Position numbers and translations under genes: made by a program
Assembly: GCA_965153455.1 (NCBI GenBank)
Contig: OZ234493.1
Coordinates: 18,962,213 to 19,026,212, forward strand
Origin: Sphagnum compactum
Lineage: Eukaryota
Direction: 5' to 3'
DNA: 64,000 bases
The notes under the pieces: generated by a model
What the model was told of the DNA's origin: nothing
What the model saw: only the letters and a program-made list of their open reading frames with translations
Databases searched by the model: none
Shown: one piece after another, positions 2,742-62,720 of the stretch
How the letters are laid out: each line of letters opens with the position of its first letter
Position numbering within the stretch: the first letter of the stretch is position 1

Positions 2742-5700
2742 TCCTATCTATTAATTTCACTACGCTGCAGCGCCTCAAGCGGCTACAGGTGGGGCCGATG
2801 GAAACAATGTGCCTGCCGCCCGGGATGAAGTCCAAAATTACCTCGATGGGCGGTATGTCAGTGCCAGCGAAGCTTGCCATCGGCTTTTTGCCTTTGACTT
2901 GCACAACATGCACCCCAATGTTTACCGCTTGGCTGTTCATCTGCTTAATGAGTAGACCACTTACTTTCCTGAGGGGACCACGGTTGGGGAAGCCATGATG
3001 CGCAACAACTCCACCACTTTGACTGGGTGGTGTGACTTCAACCGAAAGGCCAAATATGAATACGCGACTACAGCCACTTTGGCTCACAACAGCAACAACC
3101 CTGCACCGCCACTGCTTGCTACGCTGACCACACTGTACCCAGATTATCCCGAAATCGTTGTGTGGAGCAAATCCAAAAAGGCGTGGCACCTCCGGAAAAG
3201 GGCAGTGGGGCGGCGGGGTGCATGCCAAAACAATCATGTCACATTGGGAACTGTGGGGCGCATGTATTTTGTGCAACCCTCAGAGGGCGAGCGTTATTAT
3301 CTGCCAATTTACCCACGTTGCAGGGGCCACATGCTTTGAGGACCTCAGAACTACCCACCGGCCCCACGTGGCTTGCTGCAAGATGATGCTGAATGGGACG
3401 AGTGCCTTTCAGAAGCTGTTGGCGTGCAACTCCCCAGAAGCTTGCGGCAGCTTTTTACCATCCTGCTGATTTTCAACAACGTCACCAATCCTGGGCAGCT
3501 GTGGGACAGGCATAAGGGAGCCCTTACGGAAGATTTCCTGCACCAAGCACGCCAGGTGAGTGGCCAAAAGGCCTCCACAAAGGAAGTGTATATTGCAAGC
3601 CTCCCTTTCGTTGGGTTGTGATGGTATAAGTTGTGCTCTGTTGTCTTCTTTGAACTACTGCCTGGAAACTTCTCTATTGAATGGTCGATTGTTGGATTCA
3701 ATGTACTAGAAAGCTGATCCCTCAGCATCATTCCACACATTTCATTTAATGAGTCTTACCACATATTGGTGCTGCAAATCCCACTGGATTGCGTTTGCTG
3801 AACCTAAGGCCAAGCTCCTCGAGGTGGTGCTCAACGAGCTGTTGGATCCTATTGCAGTCCAGATTTCTTTGCTAGCTATAAGCATGAATAACTGTGCACT
3901 TCTGGATTATAACCCCCCCCCGCCCCCGATTGCGTCGCGCAGGTAACGCCCAATCGGCAACTGGACCAGGCCATTCTTGACCAGGGCTTGCGAGAAGTGG
4001 AGCAGCTGTTGCAGGCCCAAGGGGGGAAAACCCTAGAGGGTTTTGAGCTGCCTATCCCTGCACAGCTGGCTGCCCCGGGGGACGCCGCTGTATCCGAGGA
4101 GCGGGCGAGGTACAATGTGACGCGGCAAGCTCAGCAGCTTGCTCGGGATGTGCCTTTGCTAAATCAGCATCAGCGCTCCATTTATGACAATGTCATTGAC
4201 GCGGTCCATGACCCCAGGCCGGTGGACAAAACCTTTTTTGTTGATGGGCTGGGAGGGGCTGGCAAGACTTTCCTCTACGGGTGCCTACTCAGCAAGGTAC
4301 TGGTGACATAGCGTTGTCGATGGCATCTTCTGGCATTGCAGCCCTACTTTTGGAGGGCGGCTGCACAGCTCACTCACGTTTCAAAATTCCCGTAGCAGGC
4401 CTTTGTGGCTCATCTGCTTGCTATGTTCCCCTGAACAGTCCACAAGCGGCCTTGATTCGGGCTGCACGCCTCATTGTGTGGGATGAGGCACCCATGGCCC
4501 ACAAGCATGTGTTTGAGGCTGTGAACCGCACGCTCCAGCAGGTTATGGGTGTTGTTGACCCTGCCTTAAAGGACATGCTTTTTGGGGGCAAGGTTGTTGT
4601 CATGGGAGGTGATTTTAGGCAGCTATTGCCTGTGGTTCCCCGGGGCACGAGAGGCCAGATTGTGGATGCCAGTCTCAAGAGGTCCGCAATCCTTTGGCAC
4701 CATGTTAAAGTACGTCACCTGCATGAAAACATGCGTGTTCAAAGGCTTTTGGCACAGGGCGGAGCCAACGCCGCGGTCGATGCCCAACAACAGCAAGCTT
4801 GGGCAGACTACTTGCAACGCATTGGGGAGGGCACAGAGCAAGTCTTTCCTGAGGTTGGGGAGGAGGCTGTTTTGATCCCAGAAGACATGTGTTGCCAGGG
4901 TGACACCATTGATAGCCTGGTGGATGAAGTTTACGGCGACCTTGGCCGCTTCACAGACTCGCAGTCATGCAATGAGCACATCATTCAGAGGGCCATTTTA
5001 ACTCCTTTGAACGAGGACGTTGACAGCATCAACATCGCCATCATGAATCGGTTTAACTTCACCACACCTGACGGCCCACCAGCACAGCGCCGCACGTACC
5101 AGAGCGCTGATTCTCTTGTGCAAGGCGAACAGAGACGGGTTTACCCCACCGAGTTTCTAAACTCCTTCAGCATGTCAGGGGTGCCACCCCACACTTTGAC
5201 CTTGCAGGAAGGCTGCCCGGTGATTTTGCTGCGGAATATGCCGGGCGGCCTTGCAAATGGCACTTGGTTTATTGTGGTCAAGCTGATGCAACACATAATT
5301 GATGTTGAAATTGCCACAGGACCGGACAAGGGTAGGCGCGTTTTCATTCCCCGCCTCAACATCACTCCCTCTGACACGAAAAGGATGCCTTTTACTCTCC
5401 GCCGGCGACAGTTCCCGTTGCAGCCCGCATTTGCCATGACTATCAACAAGGCCCAGGGGCATACACTGCAGACAGTGGGGGTGTACCTGTCGAAGCCTGT
5501 TTTTTGCCACGGGCAGCTTTATGTGGCTTTCTCTCGGTGCGGCTCACGGCGAGGCGTCCGGGTGCTGGTACGGGGTGGCAGCAGGGCGGCTCTGAATGGG
5601 ACCCCTGCTGGCGTTTACACTAGTAATGTGGTCTACCGCGAGGTGCTGCAGTGATTCTTCTTGTGGGTATGGGGTTCTTAGGGGTCTCGTTTGGACTCCC

Positions 5701-34554: not shown

Positions 34555-34644
34555 TCTCTCGCTTATGTGCCCTGATTGATTAAATCTAAAACATTTCCTA
34601 AGTCACCAAGCCTTGATCATCTCTCGTAGCCTTTGATTTCAATC

Positions 34645-36081
34645 ATGGGCACATGTTTTTGCAAATGTTCGAAGCCCGGCAGCAGCTCCTCCACGCGGGA
34701 ACTGAACAAAGACACGCTTACTACACCAACGATGCAGAGTGCACGCTACGAATCAGCAAGCCCAGAGTTGGCGACTGGAGAGAATATGGCCACCTCAGTA
34801 GTAACAACAGATCAGCATCAGACGTACTATGGATCAGCAGTTGTGGAGCTTTCCAGTGAGCTTCAGCTGGAGGATCCAATGCTAATAGAACCGAAGCAAT
34901 GCGGATCCGTGCTTGTGGAGCTTTCGAGTGAGGTTCAGCTGGAGGATCATCCAATGCAGCTAACAGAACATGCCTACTACGGTTCCCCGCCTGAGGAGCT
35001 TTCGAGTGAGGTTCAGCCGGAGGATCCAATGCAACTAACAGAACAGACATGCTACGGGTCTGCCCCTGAGTACCTTTGGAGTGAGCTTCAGGTCGAGGAG
35101 GATGCGGAGACTGTAGACTACGAAAGTTTTGATCAGGTGCTGCAAATAGATCCGTCAGAACTTGAATTAGTAGAGGAAATTGCACAAGGTGGGCAAGCAC
35201 ATGTTTACTTAGCTAAATGGAAGACGCGGGGTGGTCGAGAGGTGGTGGTGAAAACATACAAAGGCCGTGCAGTTGATGTGGTGCAATTGCGTAGGCGATT
35301 GGCGAAGGCCCATAAAAACCCAGCTTACTCTTTGGGAATTTGCGAGTTGTTTGGATACTCAGAGGATAATACCACCGGCGAGGTTTCGGTAGTCATGGAA
35401 GCGATGAGAGGAGATTTGCGAAACCTCATCGACTTGAGAGTGCGATACCTCAAATCTCGGATGCGCAACAACACGACGATGAAGAAGAAGAGGGATGAGC
35501 AGATGGGGATGATAACGATGATGCCTTTTCCGAAGGAATTGACATTGGATATGATGCGACGTATTGCTTACGGGGTGGAATGGTTGCATAGTCGTGGATT
35601 GATACACAAAGACCTCAAGGCCTCCAACATCTTTGTGTCGCCCCATGACTCAAAACAGGGCTTCATCACTAGTAGAAACGTCAAATTGAAGCGAGATTTG
35701 GCCTACGATCATATTTGGGTGTCAGTCGGGGACTACGAGAGCTCCAACGGCGTAGTGGGCACAGCATTTTGGAGGGCACCGGAAGTGTTGAAGGCGCTTC
35801 GAGACAACATCACACCCACATATTCAGTAGCTGTGGATGTGTATGGTTTCGGGATGGTGTGTTATGAGTTACTCACTGGTCTCATTCCCTTTCAAGGCCA
35901 TAGCTTGTCAGACTACGAGCTGGTTTTGTCTGGAGGAAGACCAGAGCTTCCTGATTACTTGAGCCCTGAGATCACCCAATTACTACACAACTGTTGGCAC
36001 GTGGATCCTTGCCAACGGCCTGGGTGGGGTGAGATCATTGAAATCCTACACGCAGAATGGCGGAGATCTCTGACCTCCTAG
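34645..36081 (+). CDS. Intronless Raf-like/TKL protein kinase with predicted N-myristoylation/S-acylation and four ~25-aa acidic repeats
   Basis: N-terminus MGTCFCKCS. Kinase motifs IAQGGQAHVY, VVVK, IHKDLKASNI, GDYE at the DFG position, GTAFWRAPEV, DVYGFGMVCYELLTG, CWHVDPCQRP. Repeats of the type YYGSxxxELSSEvQxEDPM. Confidence 0.88.
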   Translation: MGTCFCKCSKPGSSSSTRELNKDTLTTPTMQSARYESASPELATGENMATSVVTTDQHQTYYGSAVVELSSELQLEDPMLIEPKQCGSVLVELSSEVQLEDHPMQLTEHAYYGSPPEELSSEVQPEDPMQLTEQTCYGSAPEYLWSELQVEEDAETVDYESFDQVLQIDPSELELVEEIAQGGQAHVYLAKWKTRGGREVVVKTYKGRAVDVVQLRRRLAKAHKNPAYSLGICELFGYSEDNTTGEVSVVMEAMRGDLRNLIDLRVRYLKSRMRNNTTMKKKRDEQMGMITMMPFPKELTLDMMRRIAYGVEWLHSRGLIHKDLKASNIFVSPHDSKQGFITSRNVKLKRDLAYDHIWVSVGDYESSNGVVGTAFWRAPEVLKALRDNITPTYSVAVDVYGFGMVCYELLTGLIPFQGHSLSDYELVLSGGRPELPDYLSPEITQLLHNCWHVDPCQRPGWGEIIEILHAEWRRSLTS

Positions 36082-48264: not shown

Positions 48265-49105
48265 TCCTACAGAGAACCCTCCATTCGCGGTCAGATGAAG
48301 CCTCCAGTTGGTTGCCATCCACAAATGAGGGCTCTGACACCGGGTTATAGCTTTCATTCCACGTATCGTGTTGGATATATAGAGTCCAACCTTACAGAGT
48401 CCAACCTCACAGAACAATTAAGGTCGTCCATGTCTGAATTCCCAACCTTTCTGGAAGCCCAGTTGATGTTATCACAATTCTTCACCGAGTATGGGGAGCC
48501 TCTGAAAGAAAAGGATGAACCCTTCCCAAGCACCCCAGTTGGCTTCCAGCTGTCCTGGCCAATCTGTCTCCATGTACCTTTCACAGATCGCAATTCTGTG
48601 TTTCCCCTATATGCCTGCTGCTGCTGCTGCAAATGACCATCAGCTGCGGCTTGTTGTTGTAGTATGTCCTCAGAATCATCTAATCCTCCTCGATTCTCAC
48701 AGGTGAGAACAAAGGGATGCTTCAGAAGCTCAGTTGCACTAGGCCTCAGTGTGGGCTCCCTCCGGAGACACTTGAGGAGACAATCCTTGCCTTGATGAGA
48801 AAGATGCTCAGGGATGGGAGGGTGTGAGTTTGTAGTTCCAATGTGGAACAATGCAGCTACCTCTTGGAACTGCTGTCTCCAGGGAGGTTTACCAGTCGCC
48901 ATTTCAATCACAGTGCAGGCAACACTGTTAGCTTGCCAATTGTGACCCGTATGACGAATGACCTCAGAAGCCATCCAGGAAGGTGTGCCTTTCACGGACT
49001 TGGCTTCAGAAATGGTTGCAAGTTTAACTACATTTTTGGATGCACCAAAGTCTGCAAGCTTGATACGTCCCTTGTTATCAACCAGGATGTGTGCCCCTTT
49101 GATTG
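48265..49105 (-). pseudogene. Processed (intronless), 5'-truncated NPK1/ANP-type MAPKKK fragment
   Basis: [88 protein letters not shown]. Subdomains I-VIa are missing, DIW is deleted, APE is changed to ASE, and there is a frameshift before NPVSEPS. Confidence 0.88.
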
Positions 49106-49604
49106 ATGTCACTATTGCCAATTTGCAACCCTTGTGGCCAATGTTGTAGCATTTATTAGTAAGTTGGGGCCAGACAAAAAGCCAAAAATGCTCAAAGTTG
49201 GCCCCAAGTTTTTTCAGCGCTGACTCCTATTGTGATGCGGGCAATAGACTAAATCAGGGTGTCTGAGTTCAAATTTAACATTTCTTTGATGCGTCTTGGA
49301 GTTATTATTGGGGGAAAGGAAGGGCGCATTCAAGAAGGTGAACGTATTAATGTAGGTGCAGGTTCAGCCTGGCCAATTAATTACAGGTTTCCCCAATTCC
49401 TTCACAAACAACAGACTTGGTTGTGGGCACCATAACACGAAGCAGGTCAGAAAACCAAAAATGAGCAAAAAGTTACTGGCTTTCACGAGGCTAGGGCCTC
49501 AGATCTGGGATCCAATATGTTTGCACTTTGCACCAGATGTCAATCGTGCTGACTGGGGTTCTGCACATAAGGAGTCAAAAGGGTCTTGCAGTAAAACACC
49601 ATTA

Positions 49605-51640: not shown

Positions 51641-52042
51641 GAAAAGTCGAAAAGGAGTAAGAAAAGAGAGTGGGAATTCCAGGGAGATCGTGAAGAGGAA
51701 AGGGGTTGATGTTCTTTGGAGAGATCTAGTGGAAAGATCAGCTTGCGAGAATCTGTGATGTGACGGACACCCATCATACCCTGTGTATGCTATTGGGATG
51801 GGAGAGGATTTCTAGCAGGTTTTATGAGCGCTTCTTCTTCTGTGAGAAAAGTCGAAAAAGTAGTAAGAAGAGAAGAGAGTGAGAATTCCAGGGAATTCGT
51901 GAAGAGGAAACCGGTTGATGTTTCCTGGGGAGATCTAGTGGAAAGATCAGCTTAGCTTGCGGGAATCTGTGATGTGAGGGACACCCATCATACCCTGTGT
52001 ATGCTATTGGGATGGCAAAGGATTTGTAGCCAGGTTTCATGA
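51641..52042 (+). repeat. ~205-bp tandem duplication directly upstream of the NLR start
   Basis: 51641-51827 is nearly identical to 51846-52042. Confidence 0.9.
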
Positions 52043-52100
52043 GACCAAAAGGTTACGAGAAAAATATTTATGAGAGCAGTGAGCAAAAGTAGTGTGAAAT

Positions 52101-55100
52101 ATGAGAAATTCATATGCCCGCAAGCGAAAAGGAGTTGATCTTTCACAAAGGCCACCAAAAAGAAAGAGAGATGTTGTGCGGATCCCTGCTGTGATTGACA
52201 CACCTTCAGTGCCCGCTGAAAATCCTCCTTCAAGCTCTAGATGGCACAGCAGTGTGGTGCTTATTCTTAATCTTATGATGAGCTTTCTTTGCACAGTTTT
52301 TTCTTGGGCTTTCGCAAGTGACACGTTGAAGTTTGATTTTTCTTTTCTTTTTTTTAATTTTGTTTGGGTGATGACAATTTTTCCTTGACCCTTACAACCA
52401 TGATAGCTTATTGTCCTCACAAAGCATCAGGAGAAGGAGCTCTAGTTCAGATTTGAAATCCCAACCAATAGCTTCACAACCATACCTTTTAGCCACTAGG
52501 GTACTTGAATGTCCCCAATCATTTACAAGTTTCCTTTTTATACATTTTTTACTTTGCTTGCTTTCCAGTTTGTTTGCTTAGTTAAAAAATAAATGAAATG
52601 ATGTTTAAAACAATACGAAATGGAGTCATCATTATAGCCTCTTACATTCGGCCGGTGACTCATTTGCTATAACAAGTAGAATTGGTGAAAGGCAAATTTG
52701 TCAAAATTTGACATTGACTAAGAATATATTGAACTTGTAAAGATTGGAACTTTCATTATAAATTATTAGCTAAGTTCAATGTGTAGTCATAATCCAACAA
52801 CCTAAAGCAAATTATAAAAATGCTCTTGGACATTCTTATTGGGTTTGTGTCCCAATGCCTTAGCCATTGGAGGCCTTAGAGGCCCAAATGTTGGGGAAAA
52901 TGTGATGAAATACAAATCAACCCAAACTTGAAAGAATCCAATTCTTAGCATTAACCTTTATTGTTTCACATACATTCCACCTACTATGTAACAACATTTA
53001 CTCATTGAACTATATTTTGAAACTTTGAGGTCTATGACACATGTGAATGATCTTCATTTGTTAGTCATGCAAGATAGATTTGGTATTCTCCAATTCATCT
53101 ATTATTGTCATCTTGTTAAACTTAATCTTTTCAACTAATTATTGCCTTTATTTAACTACTATAATTTGTATATTGCATTTTTCTTATTTCATGTATAGTC
53201 GAATAATTTCCAAGAGACATTTAAAGAATTGTGTTGACTCGTTTTCATTTTCTTTGCAGGAATATCGAGTGCATGATTTAAATCCCACTTGCAATTCCAA
53301 TAATCCAAACTTGACCATCGTTTTTTTTCATGGGATTGCTTTTGGCACAAATGATGAATGGAAGGAAACATGGACAACACGCCCCACCAATAATAGAGAA
53401 GAGTGCATATGTTGGCCAAAAAAGTGGCTACCCGAAGACTTGAACAACAATGTTCGAATTTTATCATTGTCCTATGATTCTAACATTGTGGCAAGTGTTC
53501 ACAATGATGTGACTGAAATTGGCAAAAACCTCATTCAAAGTTTGGTTACAAATTCAAGGTGTGACAATCTCATCTATTTATGGACACTTAATTACTTCTC
53601 CTTGTGTGCATTAAAGATAATTGTTTACATTTTTAGAATTTCTTAAATGTTTCGCATGAGTTAATTGTTCATGTGTGCTAACATTGTGATACACACCAAC
53701 AAATTTCAATTTACTTGAATTGTTAAATTCATGTAGGATAACATAAAATGGGGCTTAAATGCAAATATTCTTGTTTGAAGATAATAACAAAGCCTATGTT
53801 CATATTATAAGTTCATGGTACAACTAGTTTGGTTTTTATGGCAATTTTTAGTTTGCACTTTTTGAAACTTTATCTTTGGTAATGCAATTGAATTGAATTG
53901 AATTGAATTAACACATGTGTTGAAAATTTGCATCCATTTCATTGCAAAAAATATATATTAAAAAAAGTATAAATATTTTATTTTATTTTTTAAATTTCAA
54001 GTATATTTCTAAGGTAACACATAGAAGATGAATTGTATATCAACACAAGAATGTAAACACCTACATACTTGTGCATAATATTTGTTTTATCAAAACATGG
54101 TTGTCACATTTTTTAAGTAGATTAATATCAATAAACGAAAAATGACATACGACAAGCAAATCAATTATGAACTTATGCCTTAGGTCATGTGTGAATTGGA
54201 AAATTGCCCCAAGTAAAATAGGATTAATTTGTACATGCTAATAGAATGTTGATAATGGAATTTTGGTGCATTGTTGAATATTTTGTAGTTATCAATCCCT
54301 TTGGGATGGACCGGTGACATTAGTTGCTTATAGTTTTGGAGGTCTTGTACTCAAAAGCTTGGTGGTTGAAGCTCACAAACGTGTATATCAAAGGTCAAAA
54401 AATGGTTTGGATGATGAAGTACACAAATGTTGTAAAACATTTTTGAACAATGTCAAAGGTGTAGTATTTTATGGTGTACCACATTTTGGTGGTACCAAAT
54501 ATTTATCAAAATATTTCGCTTGGCAATGTCAACAAATCAACATCAACAAATATGCAACCCAACTTGGTTTTTCAAAGAATTTAAAACCTTTCAACATACA
54601 AATGGAATACCTTTCAAAGGATTTTAAAAATGTCATTCATGAAGACCTCAACATATATGCATTTGGTGAAGGATTACCAATTGATGAGAATTGGGTAAGA
54701 TTTTCATTTCACCACATTGAAAGTTATTCAACCAGGTTCATTAATTGAACATTTTTTGTATTGTCAAAACTTGTGTGGGATCATGTACTCAATACTTGTG
54801 AATATATTAATGTGGTGAATGGGTCATGTGTTTTATGGATTTTGCTTCATGAATTACTATTAATGGAAATGAAATTTAATTGACTTCAAACATTAGGAAA
54901 TAGGTTTAAATTTTCCCTTCATCAAATCAATTCCATATAAATATTTGTAAAGAAAATCATAACATCATTAAAACATGTAAGATTCATGAGATTAAAAACC
55001 AATAACTTTGTGATGTATTTGTATAAGTTGCTTGCCAAAAGGTTGAAGGAAATTACTTGTACACAATATTTCATTATTATTCAAACATCAATAGTTATTA

Positions 55101-58100
55101 AGCTATAGTTTCCACCACCATTTGGCTTATAAGTTAAAGCATAAGTGACCAGACAAATCAATGAAATCCATAACCTTAATGTTTTGCACATGCAGGGAAT
55201 TTTAGTGCCATATGTCTCAGCTATTCGGTTGTCAAACAACAACCATTACAAAATGGAGGATGCTAATCACTTGACAATTTGCAAGCCACCAAACAAAGAT
55301 CATCCAAGCTATTTTTTATTATTAAATTGTTTGAGAATATGTATGAAGGTAAAAACCTCAAATCTAATTTTTTTTATTTCATATATGTTCATGTAATTTG
55401 ATACACATTAGGTCATAGCACACTTGATGTGTATCGCATATGTAATGTCATATATATTGGTTATCAAATTAAAAAAATAACATATAAATGACCTATATTT
55501 TGTGAATTTTGACAGAAAAATATATTGCTTCCACCTTTGCCATGCCATGAGGTGGCGTTGATTGATAAAGCAAAAGACATAAACATTTTGTTACAAAAGG
55601 AATCTATTGTTGGTTTGGTTGGAATGGGTGGGATTGGGAAGACCACTTTGTGCAAAAAATTCTATCATTTGTTCCACAACCAATATGACAAATCTAGTTT
55701 TTTGGAGGATGTGAATTCAAAGGACAATATCAATGATGTCATAAAACAACTCCTACATGATTTGTGTCACAAGAGGTTATCCAAAGATGAAAATGTGAAT
55801 AAAGAAGACCTTGACAAAATTAATCAATGTATGATATTGAAAAAAGTGTTAGTGGTGGTGGATAATGTTGGTAAGGCGGAAAACCTTACTTCTTTGCCAA
55901 TTTTCATTGATAAGGCTGCTAGGAATCTAGCTTTTAAAAGCAAAGTACTTGTGAATTGTCGAAATTGGCAAAGTTTGAAATCTCATGTAAGTGAGGATGG
56001 AAAAGTGGTTATGAAATCTTTGGAGGTAAATCAAGCAAGGGAACTATTTATGTTCCATGCATTGGGTAATGGAAATCATGTTCCAACAAAGGATTTCAAC
56101 GATATATGTATGAAGATTATAAAAGCTTGTGGGGGGCTCCCTTTAAGTCTTAAAGTATTGGGTTCTTTTTTGTGCAATACTAAAGAATTGGAAATTTGGG
56201 AAGGTGCATTGAACACATTGAAAAGTGGGCAAAGTTTCACGGGGGGCAATGATAATGAAGAGCTTTGGAGTAAATTGAGGATTTCTTATGACCATTTGGA
56301 TAAACAACATAAAAACATGTTTTTGGATATTGCTTGTTTTTTGGGTGGTTTGAAAATAAGTACAATTTATCGAGCGTGGAGTGGAGATTATTTACACCCA
56401 AAATTTGGATTACAAAATTTACAACATAGATCTTTAATCCAACAGATAGAAGGTGGAATCTTGTACATACATGACCAATTACGAGACATGGGTCAAAATA
56501 TTGCAATGGAATTACCAATTATGAATCGATTTGTATGGAAATCAAATCAATCAAATTATATTCTACAAAAGGATGAGGTTGTCATTCTACTATTTCAATC
56601 CTATAATTTTATTTCAATTTCCTATGATTTTTTAAATGTCCAAAACCAAATGTTTTAGCTTTGAATTTTGATTTGATAAATACATGTTTTTCTAGTAAAT
56701 TTTAACATTAGGATGAAATGTTCTTTTATATTGATAATCTTTTTGTTTTCATTTCCCGTGATAGGTGGTGGAACACTTAGAAGGCATTTCATTGATAAAA
56801 TGTGTCGATTTACTTATGTTGTCCCAAATCGACTCAAAGGGATTTCGCAACCTTAGGTTAGTTGACTTAACAGAAGCTTCACCAACTATTGTGGAACATT
56901 GCATCCAAAACCGAAATTTGAATAATGTTAAATGGTTATGCCTAAAAAAATGCATGATTCAAAAGTTGCTAAGTAATTTGTTTTATTGTTTACGATTACA
57001 AGTACTTGATTTGGCACAATGTCAAAGTTTGAAAGAAATACCTTCATCTATTGGCCAATTGAATGCACTCCAAGAGCTTAATTTGTCAAATTGTTCCAAC
57101 TTGAAAGAACTACCTTCATCTATTGGCCAATTGAATGCACTCCAAGAGCTTGATTTGTCAGGGTGTTCCAACTTGAAAGAACTACCTTCATCTATTGGCC
57201 AATTGAATGCACTCCAAAAGCTTAATTTGTCAAGTTGTTCTAATTTGAAAGAACTACCTTCATCTATTAGCCAATTGAATGCACTCCAAGGGCTTGATTT
57301 GTCAAAGTGTTCCAACTTGAAAGAACTACCTTCATCTATTGGCCAATTGAATGCACTGCAAACCCTTATTTTATTAGAATGTTTCAACTTAAAAGAACTA
57401 CCTTCATCTATTAGCCAATTGAATGCACTCCAAGGGCTTCATTTGTCATGGTGTTCTGAGTTGAAAGAACTACCTTCATCTATTGGCCAATTGAATGCAC
57501 TCCAAGAACTTTATTTGTCATGGTGTTCCAACTTGAAAGAACTACCTTTATCTATTGGCCAATTGAATGCACTCCAAAAGCTTGATTTGTCAATATGTTC
57601 CAACTTAAAAGAACTACCTTCATCTATTGGCCAATTGAATGCACTCCAAAAGCTTGATTTATCAATATGTTCCAACTTGAAAGAACTACCTTCATCTATT
57701 GGCCAATTGAATACACTCCAAAAGCTTGATTTGTCAGGGTGTTCCAACTTGAAAGGACTACCTTCATCTATTAACCAATTGAATGCACTCCAAAGGCTTG
57801 ATTTGTCAGGGTGTTCCAAGTTGAAAGAACTACCTTCATCTATTGGCCAAGTGAATGCACTCCAAGGGTTTGATTTGTCAGGATGTTCCAACTTGAAAGA
57901 ACTACCTTCATCTATTGACCAATTGAATGCACTCCAAGTGTTTCATTTGTCATGGTGTTCTGAGTTAAAAGAACTACCTTCATCTATTGGCCAATTGAAT
58001 GCACTCCAAGACCTTGTTTTGTGCGGGTGTTCCAAGTTGAAAGAACTACCTTCATCTATTGGCCAATTGAATGCACTCCAAGGGCTTGATTTGTCAAAGT

Positions 58101-61100
58101 GTTCCAACTTGAAAGAACTACCTTCATCTATTGGCCAATTGAATGCACTCCAAAAGCTTGTTTTATCAGAATGTTCCAACTTCAAAGAACTACCTTCATC
58201 TATTGGCCACTTGAATGCACTCCAAAAGCTTGTTTTATCAGAATGTTCCAACTTGAAAGAACTACCTTCATCTATTGGCCAATTGAATACACTCCAAGGG
58301 CTTGATTTGTCAGGGTGTTCGAACTTGAAAGAACTACCTTCATCTATTGGCCAATTGAATGCACTCCAAGAGCTTGATTTGTCAAGGTGTTCCAACTTGA
58401 AAGAACTACCTTCATTTATTGGCCAATTGAATGCACTCCAAAAGCTTTCTTTCTCATGGTGGTACAACTTGAAAGAACTACCTTCATTTATTGGCCAATT
58501 GAATGCACTCCAAGAGCTTCATTTGTCAAGGTATTCTAACTCGAAAGAACAACCCTCATCTATTGGCCAATTGAATGCACTGCAAAAGTTTAATTTGTCA
58601 GAGTCTTCCAACTTTAAAGAAATACTTTCATATATTGGCCAATGGAATGCACTCCAAGAGCTTGATTTATCAAGGTGTTCCCACTTGAAAGAACTACCTT
58701 CATCTATTGGCCAATTGAATGCACTCCAAGTGCTTGTTTTATCGGAATGTTTCAACTTGAAAGGACCACCTTCATCTATTGGCCAATTGAATGCACTCCA
58801 AACGCTTGTTTTATTAGAATGTTTCAACTTGAAAAAACTACCTTCATCTATTGGCCAATTGAATGCACTCCAAGGGCTTGATTTGTCAGCGTGTTCCAAC
58901 TTGAAAGAATTACTTTCATCTATTGGCCAATTGAATGCACTCCAAAAGCTTGATTTGTCATGGTGTTCTAAGTTAAAAGAACTACCTTCATCTATTGGCC
59001 AATTGAATGCACTCCAAGGGCTTGATTTGTCATGGTGTTCTGAGTTAAAAGAACTACCTTCATCTATTGACCAATTGAATGCACTCCAAAAGCTTGATTT
59101 GTCAAGTTGTTCTAATTTGAAAGAACTACCTTCATCTATTAGCCAATTGAATGCACTCCAAGGGCTTGATTTGTCAAAGTGTTCCAACTTGAAAGAACTA
59201 CCTTCATCTATTGGCCAATTGAATGCACTCCAAGGGCTTCATTTGTCAGAATGTTCCAACTTCAAAGAACTACCTTCATCTATTGGCCAATTGAATGCAC
59301 TCCAAAAGCTTGATTTGTCATGGTGTTCTAAGTTAAAAGAACTACCTTCATCTATTGGCCAATTGAATGCACTCCAAGGGCTTGATTTGTCATGGTGTTC
59401 TGAGTTAAAAGAACTACCTTCATCTATTGGCCAATTGAATGCACTCCAAAAGCTTGATTTGTCAGGTTGTTCTAATTTAGAAGAACTACCTTCATCTATT
59501 AGCCAATTGAATGCACTCCAAGGGCTTGATTTGTCAGAATGTTCCAAGTTGAAAGAACTACCTTCATCTATTGGCCAATTGAATGCACTCCAAGGGCTTG
59601 ATTTGTCAGGGTGTTCCAACTTGAAAGAACTACCTTCATCTATTGGCCAATTGAATGCACTCCAAGTGCTTCATTTGTCATGTTGTTCTGAATTGAAAGA
59701 ACTACCTTCATCTATTGGCCAATTGAATGCACTCCAAGAACTTTATTTGTCATGGTGTTCCAACTTGAAAGAACTACCTTCATTTATTGGCCAATTGAAT
59801 GCACTCCAAAAGCTTGATTTGTCATGGTGTTCTAAGTTGAAAGAACTACCTTCATCTATTGGTCAATTGAATGCACTCCAAGGGCTTCATTTGTCGTGGT
59901 GTTCTGAATTGAAAGAACTATCTTCATGTATTGGCCAATTGAATGCACTGCAAGTGTTTCATTTGTCATGGTGTTCTGAGTTGAAAGAACTACCTTCATC
60001 TATTAGCCAATTGAATGCACTCCAAGGGCTTGATTTGTCAAAGTGTTCCAACTTGAAAGAACTACCTTCATCTATTGGCCAATTGAATGCACTCCAAATG
60101 CTTGTTTTATTAGAATGTTTCAACTTAAAAGAACTACCTTCATCTATTGGCCAATTGAATGCACTCCAAACGCTTGTTTTATCAGAATGTTCCAACTTGA
60201 AAGAACTACCTTCATCTATTGGCCAATTGAATGCACTCCAAGGGCTTGATTTGTCAGGGTGTTCCAACTTGAAAGAACTACCTTCATCTATTGGCCAATT
60301 GAATGCACTCCAAACGCTTGTTTTATCAGAATGTTTCAACTTGAAAGAACTACCTTCATCTATTGGCCGATTGAATGCACTCCAAGGGCTTGATTTGTCA
60401 GGGTGTTCCAACTTGAAAGAACTACCTTCATCTATTGGCCAATTGAATGCACTCCAAACGCTTGTTTTGTCATGGTGTTCTAAGTTGAAAGAACTACCTT
60501 CATCTATTGGCCAATTGAATGCACTCCAAGAACTTTATTTGTCATGGTGTTCCAACTTGAAAGAACTACCTTCATCTGTTGACCAATTGAATGCACTTCA
60601 AGGGCTTCATTTGTCATGGTGTTCTGAGTTGAAAGAACTACCTTCATCTATTGGCCAATTGAATGCACTCCAAGGGCTTGATTTGTCAAAATGTTTCAAC
60701 TTGAAAGAACTACCTTCATCTATTGGCCAATTGAATGCACTCCAAGGGCTTGATTTGTCAGAATGTTCTAACTTGAAAGAACTACCTTCATCTATTGGTC
60801 AATTGAATGCACTCGAACAGCTTGATTTGTCAAAGTGTTCCAATTTGAAAGAATTACCTTCATCTATTGGCCAATTGAATGCACTCCAAGGGCTTGATTT
60901 GTCAAGGTGTTCCAACTTGAAGGAACTACCTTCCTCTATTGGCCTATTAAATGCACTCCAAAAGCTTAATTTGTGGGGTTGCTCCAACTTGAAAGAATTA
61001 CCTTCATCTATTAGCCAATTAAATGCACTCCAAGAGCTTCAATTGTCAGGGTGTTCCAACTTGAAAGAATTACCTTCATTTATTGGCCTATGCAACGCAC

Positions 61101-61135
61101 TCCAAAAGCTTGATTTGTCATGTGTTGCAACTTGA
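52101..61135 (+). CDS. HNL-type NLR immune receptor: alpha/beta-hydrolase + NB-ARC + 57 LRRs, about 2148 aa
   Basis: Exons 52101-52256 (least certain), 53260-53558, 54289-54694, 55196-55348, 55516-56577, 56765-61135 splice in frame. Hydrolase motifs: IVFFHG, WPKKWLPEDL, RILSLSYD, AYSFGG, FYGVPHFG, DANHLTICKP. NB-ARC motifs: GMGGIGKTT, VLVVVDNV, CGGLPLSL, FLDIACF, IHDQLRDMG. Confidence 0.9.
56996..61135 (+). repeat. Coding tandem array of 72-bp LRR units (57 complete plus 1 partial)
   Basis: Consensus LQxLxLSxCSxLKELPSSIGQLNA with an exact 72-nt period and no indels until unit 58. Confidence 0.97.
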
Positions 61136-61830
61136 AAGAACTACTTTCATTTGTTGGCCAATTGAATGCACTCCAAGAGCTTTACTTGAATGGGTGTTCC
61201 AAATTGAAAGAATTACCGTCATCTATTCGTCAATTGAATGCACTCCAAGAATTTGATTTATAAGGGTGTTGCAACTTGATAGTATTATCTTCATCTATTG
61301 GCCAATTGAATGCACTCCAAGAATTTGATTTATCACGGTGTTGCAACTTGACAGTATTATCTTCATCTATTGGCCAATTGAATGCACTCCGATAATTTGA
61401 TTTGTCAGGGTGTTGCAGCTTGAAAGAACTATTTTTATCTATTGAACAATTGAATGCACTCCAAATTTTTTTCTATAAAACTTCTACAATTTGAAAGCAT
61501 CATTAAAAAAATACATTCATCTATGGGCAAATTGAATGCACTCAAAGTGTTTCATTTGTCCAGGTGTTCCAATTTGAAATAACTAGTTTCACCTATTGGT
61601 CTTTGAGTGCACTTGAAAATTTTGATTTTGTGAATGCTTCAACTTGCAAGAATTATTTGCATGTACATTTGCCAATTAAATGCATTCTAAAAGTTTTAGT
61701 TGTGGGAGCTTAATTTGTATGAGCTTACAAGAATTACTTACATTTATTGGCCAATTTAATGCATTCAAGGAACTTAATTTGTTAAGGTGTTTCAATTTGA
61801 GATAATTATTTTCATCCATCGCCAATTGTA
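61136..61830 (+). pseudogene. Decayed LRR units beyond the stop codon
   Basis: About 9-10 further units (ttgaaagaacta...ttggccaattgaatgcactc) with stops and indels, diverging more with distance from the stop. Confidence 0.85.
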
Positions 61831-62375: not shown

Positions 62376-62720
62376 GATGAAGCAACATTTTGCTCCTAAG
62401 GTTTCAATTTTGATGCAACAACATTTTGCTCACCAATTGGCTAATATGATTCAACAACATTTTGCTCACCAATTGGCTAATATGATTCAACAACATTTTG
62501 CTCACCAATTGGCTAATTTGATGCAGCAACATTTTGCTCAACATTGCCTCATCTGATGCACCAACATTTTGCTCAACAATTGTCTGATCTGATGCAACAA
62601 CATTTTGCTTAGCAAATGCTTGATCTTATGCAGCAACATTTTGCTCAGCAATTGTTTGACCTGATACAACGACATTTTGCTCGGCATTTGTCTATTATAA
62701 TGAAGCAACATTTTGCTTAT
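62376..62720. repeat. ~36-bp minisatellite, about 10 copies
   Basis: Unit tgatgcaacaacattttgctcaccaattggctaata; the core caacattttgctc is almost invariant. Confidence 0.9.

Follow-up and report, generated by a model that had tools for sequence, protein, structure and literature searches.

A Sphagnum compactum hydrolase-NLR gene with a last exon of 57 tandem leucine-rich-repeat units of 72 bp, uniform in the head and diverse in the tail

We analyzed a stretch of 64,000 nucleotides of Sphagnum compactum DNA (assembly GCA_965153455.1, contig OZ234493.1, positions 18,962,213 to 19,026,212 of the forward strand; hereafter the window, with positions counted from its first letter) and describe here a gene for a nucleotide-binding leucine-rich repeat receptor (NLR) whose last exon carries one 72-bp unit over and over in tandem. 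Each unit encodes one 24-residue leucine-rich repeat (LRR), and the upstream exons encode a DUF676-type alpha/beta-hydrolase, an NB-ARC domain, and a Roq1-like winged helix. We propose that this exon encodes the sensor domain of a Sphagnum immune receptor of the HNL (alpha/beta-hydrolase–NB-ARC–LRR) class, an LRR solenoid of 57 copies in which a head would be homogenized in the germline while a tail stays diverse; we put the probability of this reading at about 0.6. The gene is a real, extreme member of what looks like an undescribed, family-wide habit in Sphagnum.

Tandem Repeats Finder reports a single array with a period of 72 bp at 57029-61464 (61.6 copies, 88% matches, 0% indels, score 6359). 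This array of about 4.4 kb lies in exon 6, the last of the six exons of the HNL gene, and is covered as far as unit 57 by a stop-to-stop frame of 1456 codons (56765-61135), the sole long open reading frame (ORF) there. Counted in register from 57029, the array holds 56 complete in-frame units of 72 nt (57029-61060), followed from 61061 by a 57th unit with a 1-nt deletion in codon 21, which reads ...SCVAT and then TGA at 61133-61135. A preliminary description, made from the letters alone, had spoken of 57 exact 72-nt units in a single exon. The single exon stands, but the exactness does not, as there are 56 exact units and one of 71 nt; the observation as a whole, a tandem array that is real, coding, and in frame over 56 units, was borne out. 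The parts of exon 6 and the sequence that follows it are these:

56765..57028, + strand: irregular N-terminal LRRs at the start of exon 6 (AG at 56763-64; ORF 56765-61135; low pLDDT, the predicted local distance difference test score, at model residues 1-67)
57029..61060, + strand: 56 complete in-frame 72-nt units (Tandem Repeats Finder array, register cut, and analyses of entropy and of the proportions of synonymous and nonsynonymous differences, pS and pN)
58397..58684, + strand: units 20-23, a patch with a damaged scaffold (substitutions; model pLDDT of 46-79 over residues 541-700)
61061..61135, + strand: unit 57, with the deletion in codon 21 and TGA at 61133-61135 (translation of the unit)
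61132..61464, + strand: about 4.6 decayed units in the -1 register (each departing from the consensus at 9-10 positions, the last at 24; two with TAA; Tandem Repeats Finder span)
61492..61830 (end approximate), + strand: older, indel-ridden LRR-like remnants of about five units (sequence, translations, and ORF list)

The units follow the consensus LKELPSSIGQLNALQ-x-L-x-LS-x-CS-x, i.e., LKELPSSIGQLNALQxLxLSxCSx. Their mean pairwise identity is 88.3% at the nucleotide level and 80.0% at the amino-acid level, rising to 89.8% when the four variable positions are left out, and 50 of the 56 are distinct as whole units. About 45 nt of each unit had been called almost invariant, even at synonymous sites; the 45-mer in question is letter-perfect in 18 of the 56 units. 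Among these units, the 45-nt heads come in 29 distinct versions and the 27-nt tails in 43. A search for 33 nt of the head finds 60 matches with at most 3 mismatches, against 0 expected in 100 shuffles. The longest exact repeat within the array is 155 nt. The array is well mixed: it has no higher-order period, the mean difference between units being flat at 7.7-9.3 of 72 positions over lags 1-29, and only three short block duplications (two-unit blocks with at most 2 differences per unit). An alternation of unit types like that of Cf-2 was rejected because of this flat lag profile and the small number of block duplications.

Variation is not spread evenly over the unit. Amino-acid entropy reaches 2.45, 2.13, 2.73, and 1.23 bits at codons 16, 18, 21, and 24 and is at most 0.91 bits at every other codon; these are the four residues at which variation had been said to concentrate, with exactly the sets of amino acids named for them. 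The tail varies at synonymous sites, too (TTG/TTA at codon 19, 45/10; TCC/TCT at codon 23, 31/17; TTG/TTA at codon 1, 43/9), and the variable block is therefore about 30 nt long, wider than the four codons alone. Nei-Gojobori counts pooled over all pairs of units, which are non-independent and for which recombination was ignored, give the following values:

Head, codons 2-15: pS 0.048 (range 0.048-0.069), pN 0.040
Tail scaffold, codons 17, 19, 20, 22, and 23: pS 0.239, pN 0.061
Hypervariable, codons 16, 18, 21, and 24: pS 0.331, pN 0.404

The 42-nt head has 4-6 times less synonymous diversity than the tail (pS 0.048-0.069 versus 0.24-0.33), and the difference holds codon by codon (Mann-Whitney p = 0.002, 14 versus 10 codons). 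Plain duplication would give head and tail equal depth, because they lie only tens of bases apart in one unit. The contrast therefore points to head-biased homogenization or to selection that keeps old tail variants along with linked silent sites, and it fits a scaffold that would be homogenized within the array while diversity is retained in the presumed binding part. The ratio of nonsynonymous to synonymous divergence (dN/dS) is 0.22 in the tail scaffold; at codons 16, 18, 21, and 24 it is 1.33 against their own dS, about 2 against the dS of the neighboring tail, and about 8-12 against that of the head. The idea of a homogenized scaffold with diversifying specificity codons thus keeps its first half, in that the head is more homogeneous than the tail, whereas positive, diversifying selection on the four codons is unproven by a ratio of 1.33.

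The first 1168 residues encoded by exon 6 were modeled with AlphaFold2 from the single sequence (mean pLDDT 77.2, predicted template modeling score 0.44); the model is a regular solenoid with a period of 24 residues, in which unit 1 starts at model residue 89. Modeled strands (e.g., 104-106 and 128-131) occupy unit positions 16-18(20), and short helices (e.g., 94-98) occupy positions 6-10. Confidence is low at residues 1-67, and pLDDT falls to 46-79 over residues 541-700, where units 20-23 sit. In the modeled strand, core leucine 17 has residues 16 and 18 on either side, and residue 21 follows the strand. In LRR proteins, side chains at such strand positions line the concave face. By this established geometry, residues 16, 18, and 21 are predicted to line the concave face of the solenoid, and the earlier placement of the variable positions on or next to the concave beta-face agrees with the model, which puts the variable codons in or beside the predicted LRR beta-strand. 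A Foldseek search against the PDB returned generic LRR solenoids only (GSO1/SGN3, RGFR1, FLS2, Leptospira LIC11098, and SHOC2).

The exons upstream of the array bear out the reading of the gene as a hydrolase-NLR. Residues 119-250 of the public protein model P0002 match the Pfam family DUF676 (putative serine esterase) with 22.8 bits, above its curated cut-off of 20.3, NB-ARC (PF00931) matches with E = 3.5e-29 over profile positions 13-247 of 248, and WHD_ROQ1 matches with E = 8.1e-11; the first 312 residues of exon 6 match LRR_14 (E = 6.5e-50) and LRR_13 (E = 1.3e-25). The hydrolase core in exon 3 has AYSFGG, a GxSxG-like motif resembling a nucleophile elbow, and the NB-ARC exon has the P-loop GMGGIGKTT, GLPL, and IHD. 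Compared with the PDB by sequence, the hydrolase part gave chance matches only (E = 0.6-0.8) and no relative of solved structure. The NB-ARC exon is 100% identical to P0002 (965 residues, 'unnamed protein product, partial [Sphagnum compactum]'), and the next 60-odd protein matches are all from Sphagnum (50-92% identity), in keeping with the bryophyte source that had been surmised. P0002 maps with 100% identity onto six exons with GT/AG borders, the first five of which are as follows:

52101..52256, + strand: exon 1, N-terminal leader, P0002 residues 1-52 (exact P0002 match; GT after the exon)
53260..53558, + strand: exon 2, first part of the alpha/beta-hydrolase domain (P0002 mapping; splice joint 53556->54287 in RNA reads)
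54289..54694, + strand: exon 3, hydrolase core with AYSFGG (P0002 mapping; DUF676 match)
55196..55348, + strand: exon 4, end of the hydrolase domain (P0002 mapping, AG/GT flanks; one RNA contig of run X6 joins 55346->55514)
55516..56577, + strand: exon 5, NB-ARC and Roq1-like winged helix (Pfam matches; exon end from P0002 and GT at 56578, no read support for the junction)

In this mapping both introns at domain boundaries, the one from hydrolase to NB-ARC and the one from NB-ARC to LRR, are phase 0, and the hydrolase part contains two introns, one of phase 2 (53558/54289) and one of phase 0 (54694/55196). On these sequence features we assign the gene to the HNL class. P0002 ends after unit 8 of 57, at 57583, where there is neither a stop codon nor a gap, and 21 of the 69 top protein matches, about 690 residues long, have no unit at all; annotation may therefore often overlook the LRR exons of the Sphagnum HNL family. 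In the NB-ARC exon, the Walker B (kinase-2) stretch reads VVVDNV (Asp-Asn), as it does in P0003, and the paralogue P0006 has VVVDDV.

The same unit occurs in many other Sphagnum loci. In 455 units from 46 other Sphagnum proteins, variation falls on the same positions and on positions 20 and 23, and the head is conserved, although these units were chosen by their likeness to the head. The nearest relative with an annotation, P0003 from S. fallax, contains 7 units in frame, its orthology being unproven. Public metagenome contigs scanned with a pattern that fixes only the amino acids PSSIGQLNALQ yielded at least 120 related loci with the same unit, comprising at least 122 arrays and at least 2647 units. 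Among the loci listed, array spans reach 72, 69, 69, 57, and 54 units and in-frame runs reach 67 (L018), 63 (L102), and 62 (L060) units; 10 of the 99 arrays with at least 10 matches keep at least 30 units in frame, and 473 of the 2647 units contain a stop. In 958 units picked by the amino-acid pattern only, a single codon accounts for 86-99.5% of cases at every one of 11 positions in the head.

How the window gene stands to these loci was examined with the six that have a full ungapped NB-ARC exon and at least 5 units (two of eight were dropped because they had too few units downstream). Mean pS between the window gene and these loci is 0.16 for the NB-ARC exon, 0.10 for the heads, and 0.28 for the tail scaffold. 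Heads are thus most alike within the array (0.05) and less so between loci (0.10), where they are still less diverged than the NB-ARC exon, while the tail diversity within one array is as deep as that between genes. Exact recurrence in the 120 other loci listed is confined to one whole unit and six tails out of 56 each, and no exact stretch of at least 144 nt is common to the window array and the loci listed. We tried the idea of a pool of cassettes common to the loci and rejected it on these figures. Glycine (GGG) at codon 16 is the commonest state in the window array (20 of 56 units) and falls outside the six commonest codons at this position among the 2647 units listed from other loci; the window array therefore has some tail types of its own, which were amplified within it.

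Uniform arrays of this kind are not confined to Sphagnum. A search with the LRR exon gave 2033 proteins at E <= 1e-30 among 8000 scored candidates, and 213 collected proteins were screened for self-identity at a lag of 24 residues. The window protein has the longest uniform stretch among them (58.7 units at a lag-24 identity of 0.79), and others are a Physcomitrium patens kinase-NLR (P0139; 40 units, 0.73), an RGA4-like protein of Morus (P0142; 31.7 units, 0.86), and a protein of Ulmus (P0161; 26.6 units, 0.79). These three share the unit type LxxLxLxxCxxLxxLPxxIxxLxx with the window gene and have their entropy peaks at the x positions of LxxLxLxxC; unlike it, they have kinase or coiled-coil N termini, shorter arrays, and units that are not homologous copies of the Sphagnum unit. 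By these sequence comparisons, uniform arrays of 24-residue LRRs appear to be a recurrent, little-discussed state of plant NLRs. The window array had been presented as far beyond typical plant NLRs, but as a claim of uniqueness this fails, since related loci and the Physcomitrium kinase-NLR hold 40 to 72 such units. In the full-text literature we found no description of uniform LRR arrays in NLRs of Sphagnum or other bryophytes, with subscription journals and supplementary NLR tables outside the coverage; the supplementary NLR tables of Chia et al. 2024 or of the Sphagnum genome papers may list such genes.

Several known systems resemble the window gene in part. The usual picture of a plant NLR sensor is one of 10-30 degenerate LRRs, with point mutation and exchange between paralogues as the sources of diversity. 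Tomato Cf-2, an extracellular LRR receptor-like protein with about 38 LRRs, is a resistance protein in which LRR blocks are repeated almost exactly, as they are in the window gene, and its alleles differ in repeat number; the repeat block of rice Xa1-type NLRs is much longer than one LRR. The excerpted text of PMC7748011 describes Xa1-type NLRs, too, as resistance proteins with near-identical central tandem repeats and with alleles that differ in repeat number. For the HNL class, the portions of Xue et al. (2012, PMC3352924) drawn on here give phase-0 introns between hydrolase and nucleotide-binding site (NBS) and between NBS and LRR, plus one phase-0 intron inside the hydrolase, and call HNLs liverwort-specific in the authors' view. 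The window gene matches that class in the order hydrolase, NB-ARC, LRR, in the phase-0 introns between domains, and in an NB-ARC and winged helix of the TNL/Roq1 type; it differs from those HNLs in that its host is a moss and its hydrolase part has two introns, one of them phase 2. Sphagnum hydrolase-NLRs are already mentioned in the excerpts of Chia et al. (2024, PMC11218826), which also report that the N-terminal hydrolase domains of Marchantia NLRs cause cell death resembling the hypersensitive response in N. benthamiana. Compared with the HNLs described in these portions of PMC3352924 and PMC11218826, the LRR part of the window gene is far longer and more uniform.

A closer parallel in mode of evolution is found in fungi. 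As set out in the sections of Dyrka et al. (2014, PMC4986451) that were available, the fungal NLRs with repeats of high internal conservation (HIC), among them Podospora HET-E, HET-D, and NWD, are defined by at least 85% repeat identity over at least 100 residues, carry WD, ANK, or TPR repeats, and have documented repeat-number polymorphism and positive selection. The window gene shares with them near-identical C-terminal repeats, variation at binding positions, and a signature of concerted evolution, whereas its repeats are LRRs, which do not occur there, in a land plant. At lag 24, 85% identity is reached in 19% of its 100-residue windows, and the unit mean is 80.0%. The likeness lies in the mode of evolution and not in membership; to that extent the earlier comparison with HET-E is supported, since the signature of homogenization with retained diversity, a low head pS against that of the tail, is present.

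We hypothesize that the array arose and persists in the germline through tandem duplication of units and that out-of-register exchange or gene conversion between units would maintain it. The head of 42-45 nt, which codes for the convex side and the helix (unit positions 2-15), would be kept nearly identical, and the tail of 27-30 nt, which codes for the beta-strand LxLxLSxC with the exposed residues 16, 18, 21, and 24, would be kept diverse. By analogy with characterized NLRs, the variable concave face may bind a pathogen-derived ligand, the NB-ARC domain would switch and oligomerize, and the N-terminal hydrolase domain would execute the response.

Several observations weigh against this proposal. 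Within the array, the head has a dN/dS of 0.6-0.8, and the ratio of only 1.33 at the hypervariable codons, though suggestive of diversifying selection, is no proof of it and is compatible with relaxed constraint. Thirteen of the 56 units are altered at one of nine scaffold positions, including the four consecutive damaged units 20-23 (58397-58684; C22W, C22Y, C22S, L1S, L4Q, P5L, and L11W), which could mean relaxed constraint. Recent exchange between loci is not evident in the sequences compared, which probably come from other species; a change in repeat number is deduced from the array of one individual, and the length of that array is taken from the assembly. The RNA data gave no gene-specific signal: in run X24, depth is 0.51 over the unique stretch 56788-56958, and only 236 of 3480 aligned reads are at least 99% alike.

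Much of this would also suit a neutral runaway expansion in a decaying gene, a coding minisatellite within a birth-and-death family whose copy here is not, or is no longer, a working receptor. The head dN/dS, the scaffold-breaking changes in units 20-23 with the low model confidence there, and the lack of a specific expression signal all favor such decay, as do the public annotation that is 'partial' and ends after 8 units, the few long in-frame arrays (10/99) and many stop-bearing units (473/2647) among the related loci listed, and the 3' end of the ORF, which is set by a frameshift inside the array (in unit 57), with dead units beyond. Related genes end in a similar manner. The three longest in-frame arrays among the loci listed (L018, L102, and L060) also stop inside the array, 2.6-6 units before the end of the array or contig, which we count in favor of our own proposal. 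Frameshifted unit sequence likewise closes P0003 and P0004, two annotated relatives, and the HNL family seems to lack a conserved cap C-terminal to the LRRs. Against decay stands the frame itself, which runs through 4032 nt with no stop and no indel, while both other frames have a stop in every unit. With 13 of the 216 possible single changes creating a stop, 56 rare variants lead one to expect 3.6 stops in the 56 units where 0 are seen (P = 0.028), which argues modestly that the frame is under selection or that it arose very recently. The exons for the hydrolase and NB-ARC are undamaged and keep their motifs, and the dN/dS of 0.22 in the tail scaffold likewise speaks against decay. We consider decay unlikely, but it is the alternative to be taken seriously.

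That the assembler created the length or order of the array is very improbable in our judgment. Tandem arrays are error-prone in assemblies, and the best public DNA runs contain 0.51 of the sampled words of the flank. However, contigs from two DNA runs match the unique flanking stretch 56530-56848 without mismatch, and the locus therefore exists in independent data; the perfect 72-nt period and the frame are kept over 56 units, 50 of which are distinct, and independent assemblies contain arrays of 40-72 units of the same kind. An error in long-read assembly is unlikely because the longest exact repeat inside the array is only 155 nt. Reads aligned over 52000-57100 come mostly from relatives, with a likeness of 95-99% dominant in all four runs. 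The splice joint 53556->54287 (GT..AG, cut +2) is spanned by 149 stranded polyA RNA reads of run X24, which we attribute to relatives because they are mostly 95-99% alike. This run, labeled as another organism, also contains many unit-to-unit joints with varied tails, and arrays of the family are therefore transcribed. In word counts, the last bin reaches a depth of 30432 in run X2, compared with about 8 for contigs that are exact and unique; the figure shows only that the unit is present many times over and is not a copy number.

For the variable lymphocyte receptors (VLRs) of lampreys, the germline gene is incomplete and is filled in somatically from cassettes that flank it. A programmed or somatic diversification of this type, with units copied from donor cassettes or reshuffled in the plant body, is supported by a resemblance of design only, the constant LRR scaffold with variable concave residues. 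Unlike the VLR genes, the window gene has a complete germline ORF; none of the 60 head matches in the 64-kb window falls outside the array, and all are on one strand; neither the 57 kb upstream nor the 2.5 kb downstream contains a cassette library, and related loci have fixed germline arrays of the same kind. The VLR-like character ascribed to the gene in the preliminary description is therefore not upheld, and we give somatic diversification next to no credence.

A stronger form of the proposed germline mechanism is more tentative than the mechanism itself, and we hold it doubtful: the gene would be a working sensor in a germline 'cassette' receptor system, a plant counterpart of HET-E/NWD, in which arrays of up to about 70 units are expanded, contracted, and re-sorted via their heads. 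If so, individuals and populations would differ in the number and order of units and in the recognition surface, and the position of the stop would drift along the array. Bolder still is the notion, drawn by analogy with TALE and PPR proteins, that a code of two to four residues per unit might read a long periodic ligand unit by unit.

The surroundings of the gene contain a few other features. The other large ORFs of the 64-kb window include no second NLR. A 469-codon open frame at 4245-5651 encodes a PIF1-like helicase domain (E = 1.3e-48) with a Pif1 2B domain and is possibly part of a Helitron-type element. Two protein-kinase frames lie upstream of the NLR, at 34630-36078 on the + strand (Pkinase, E = 3.7e-28) and at 48357-49226 on the - strand (E = 4e-24). 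Just downstream of it, at 62411-62717, is a second, unrelated tandem repeat with a period of 36 bp (8.6 copies, 84% matches), which is open in one frame as MQQHFAHQLAN-like repeats.

In summary, an entire family of bryophyte NLRs has a sensor made of dozens of copies of one unit, in which the scaffold is uniform in its DNA and diversity is limited to the exposed strand. Given a public annotation that ends at unit 8 of 57, NLR censuses of mosses probably underestimate LRR domains. To our knowledge, the reshuffling of repeats by concerted evolution has so far been documented for the WD, ANK, and TPR repeats of fungal and bacterial NLRs. If the number and order of repeats vary between individuals, this reshuffling would also act on LRRs in land plants, and the family would offer a natural series of 7- to 67-unit solenoids for studying the effects of LRR length on NLR autoinhibition and recognition.

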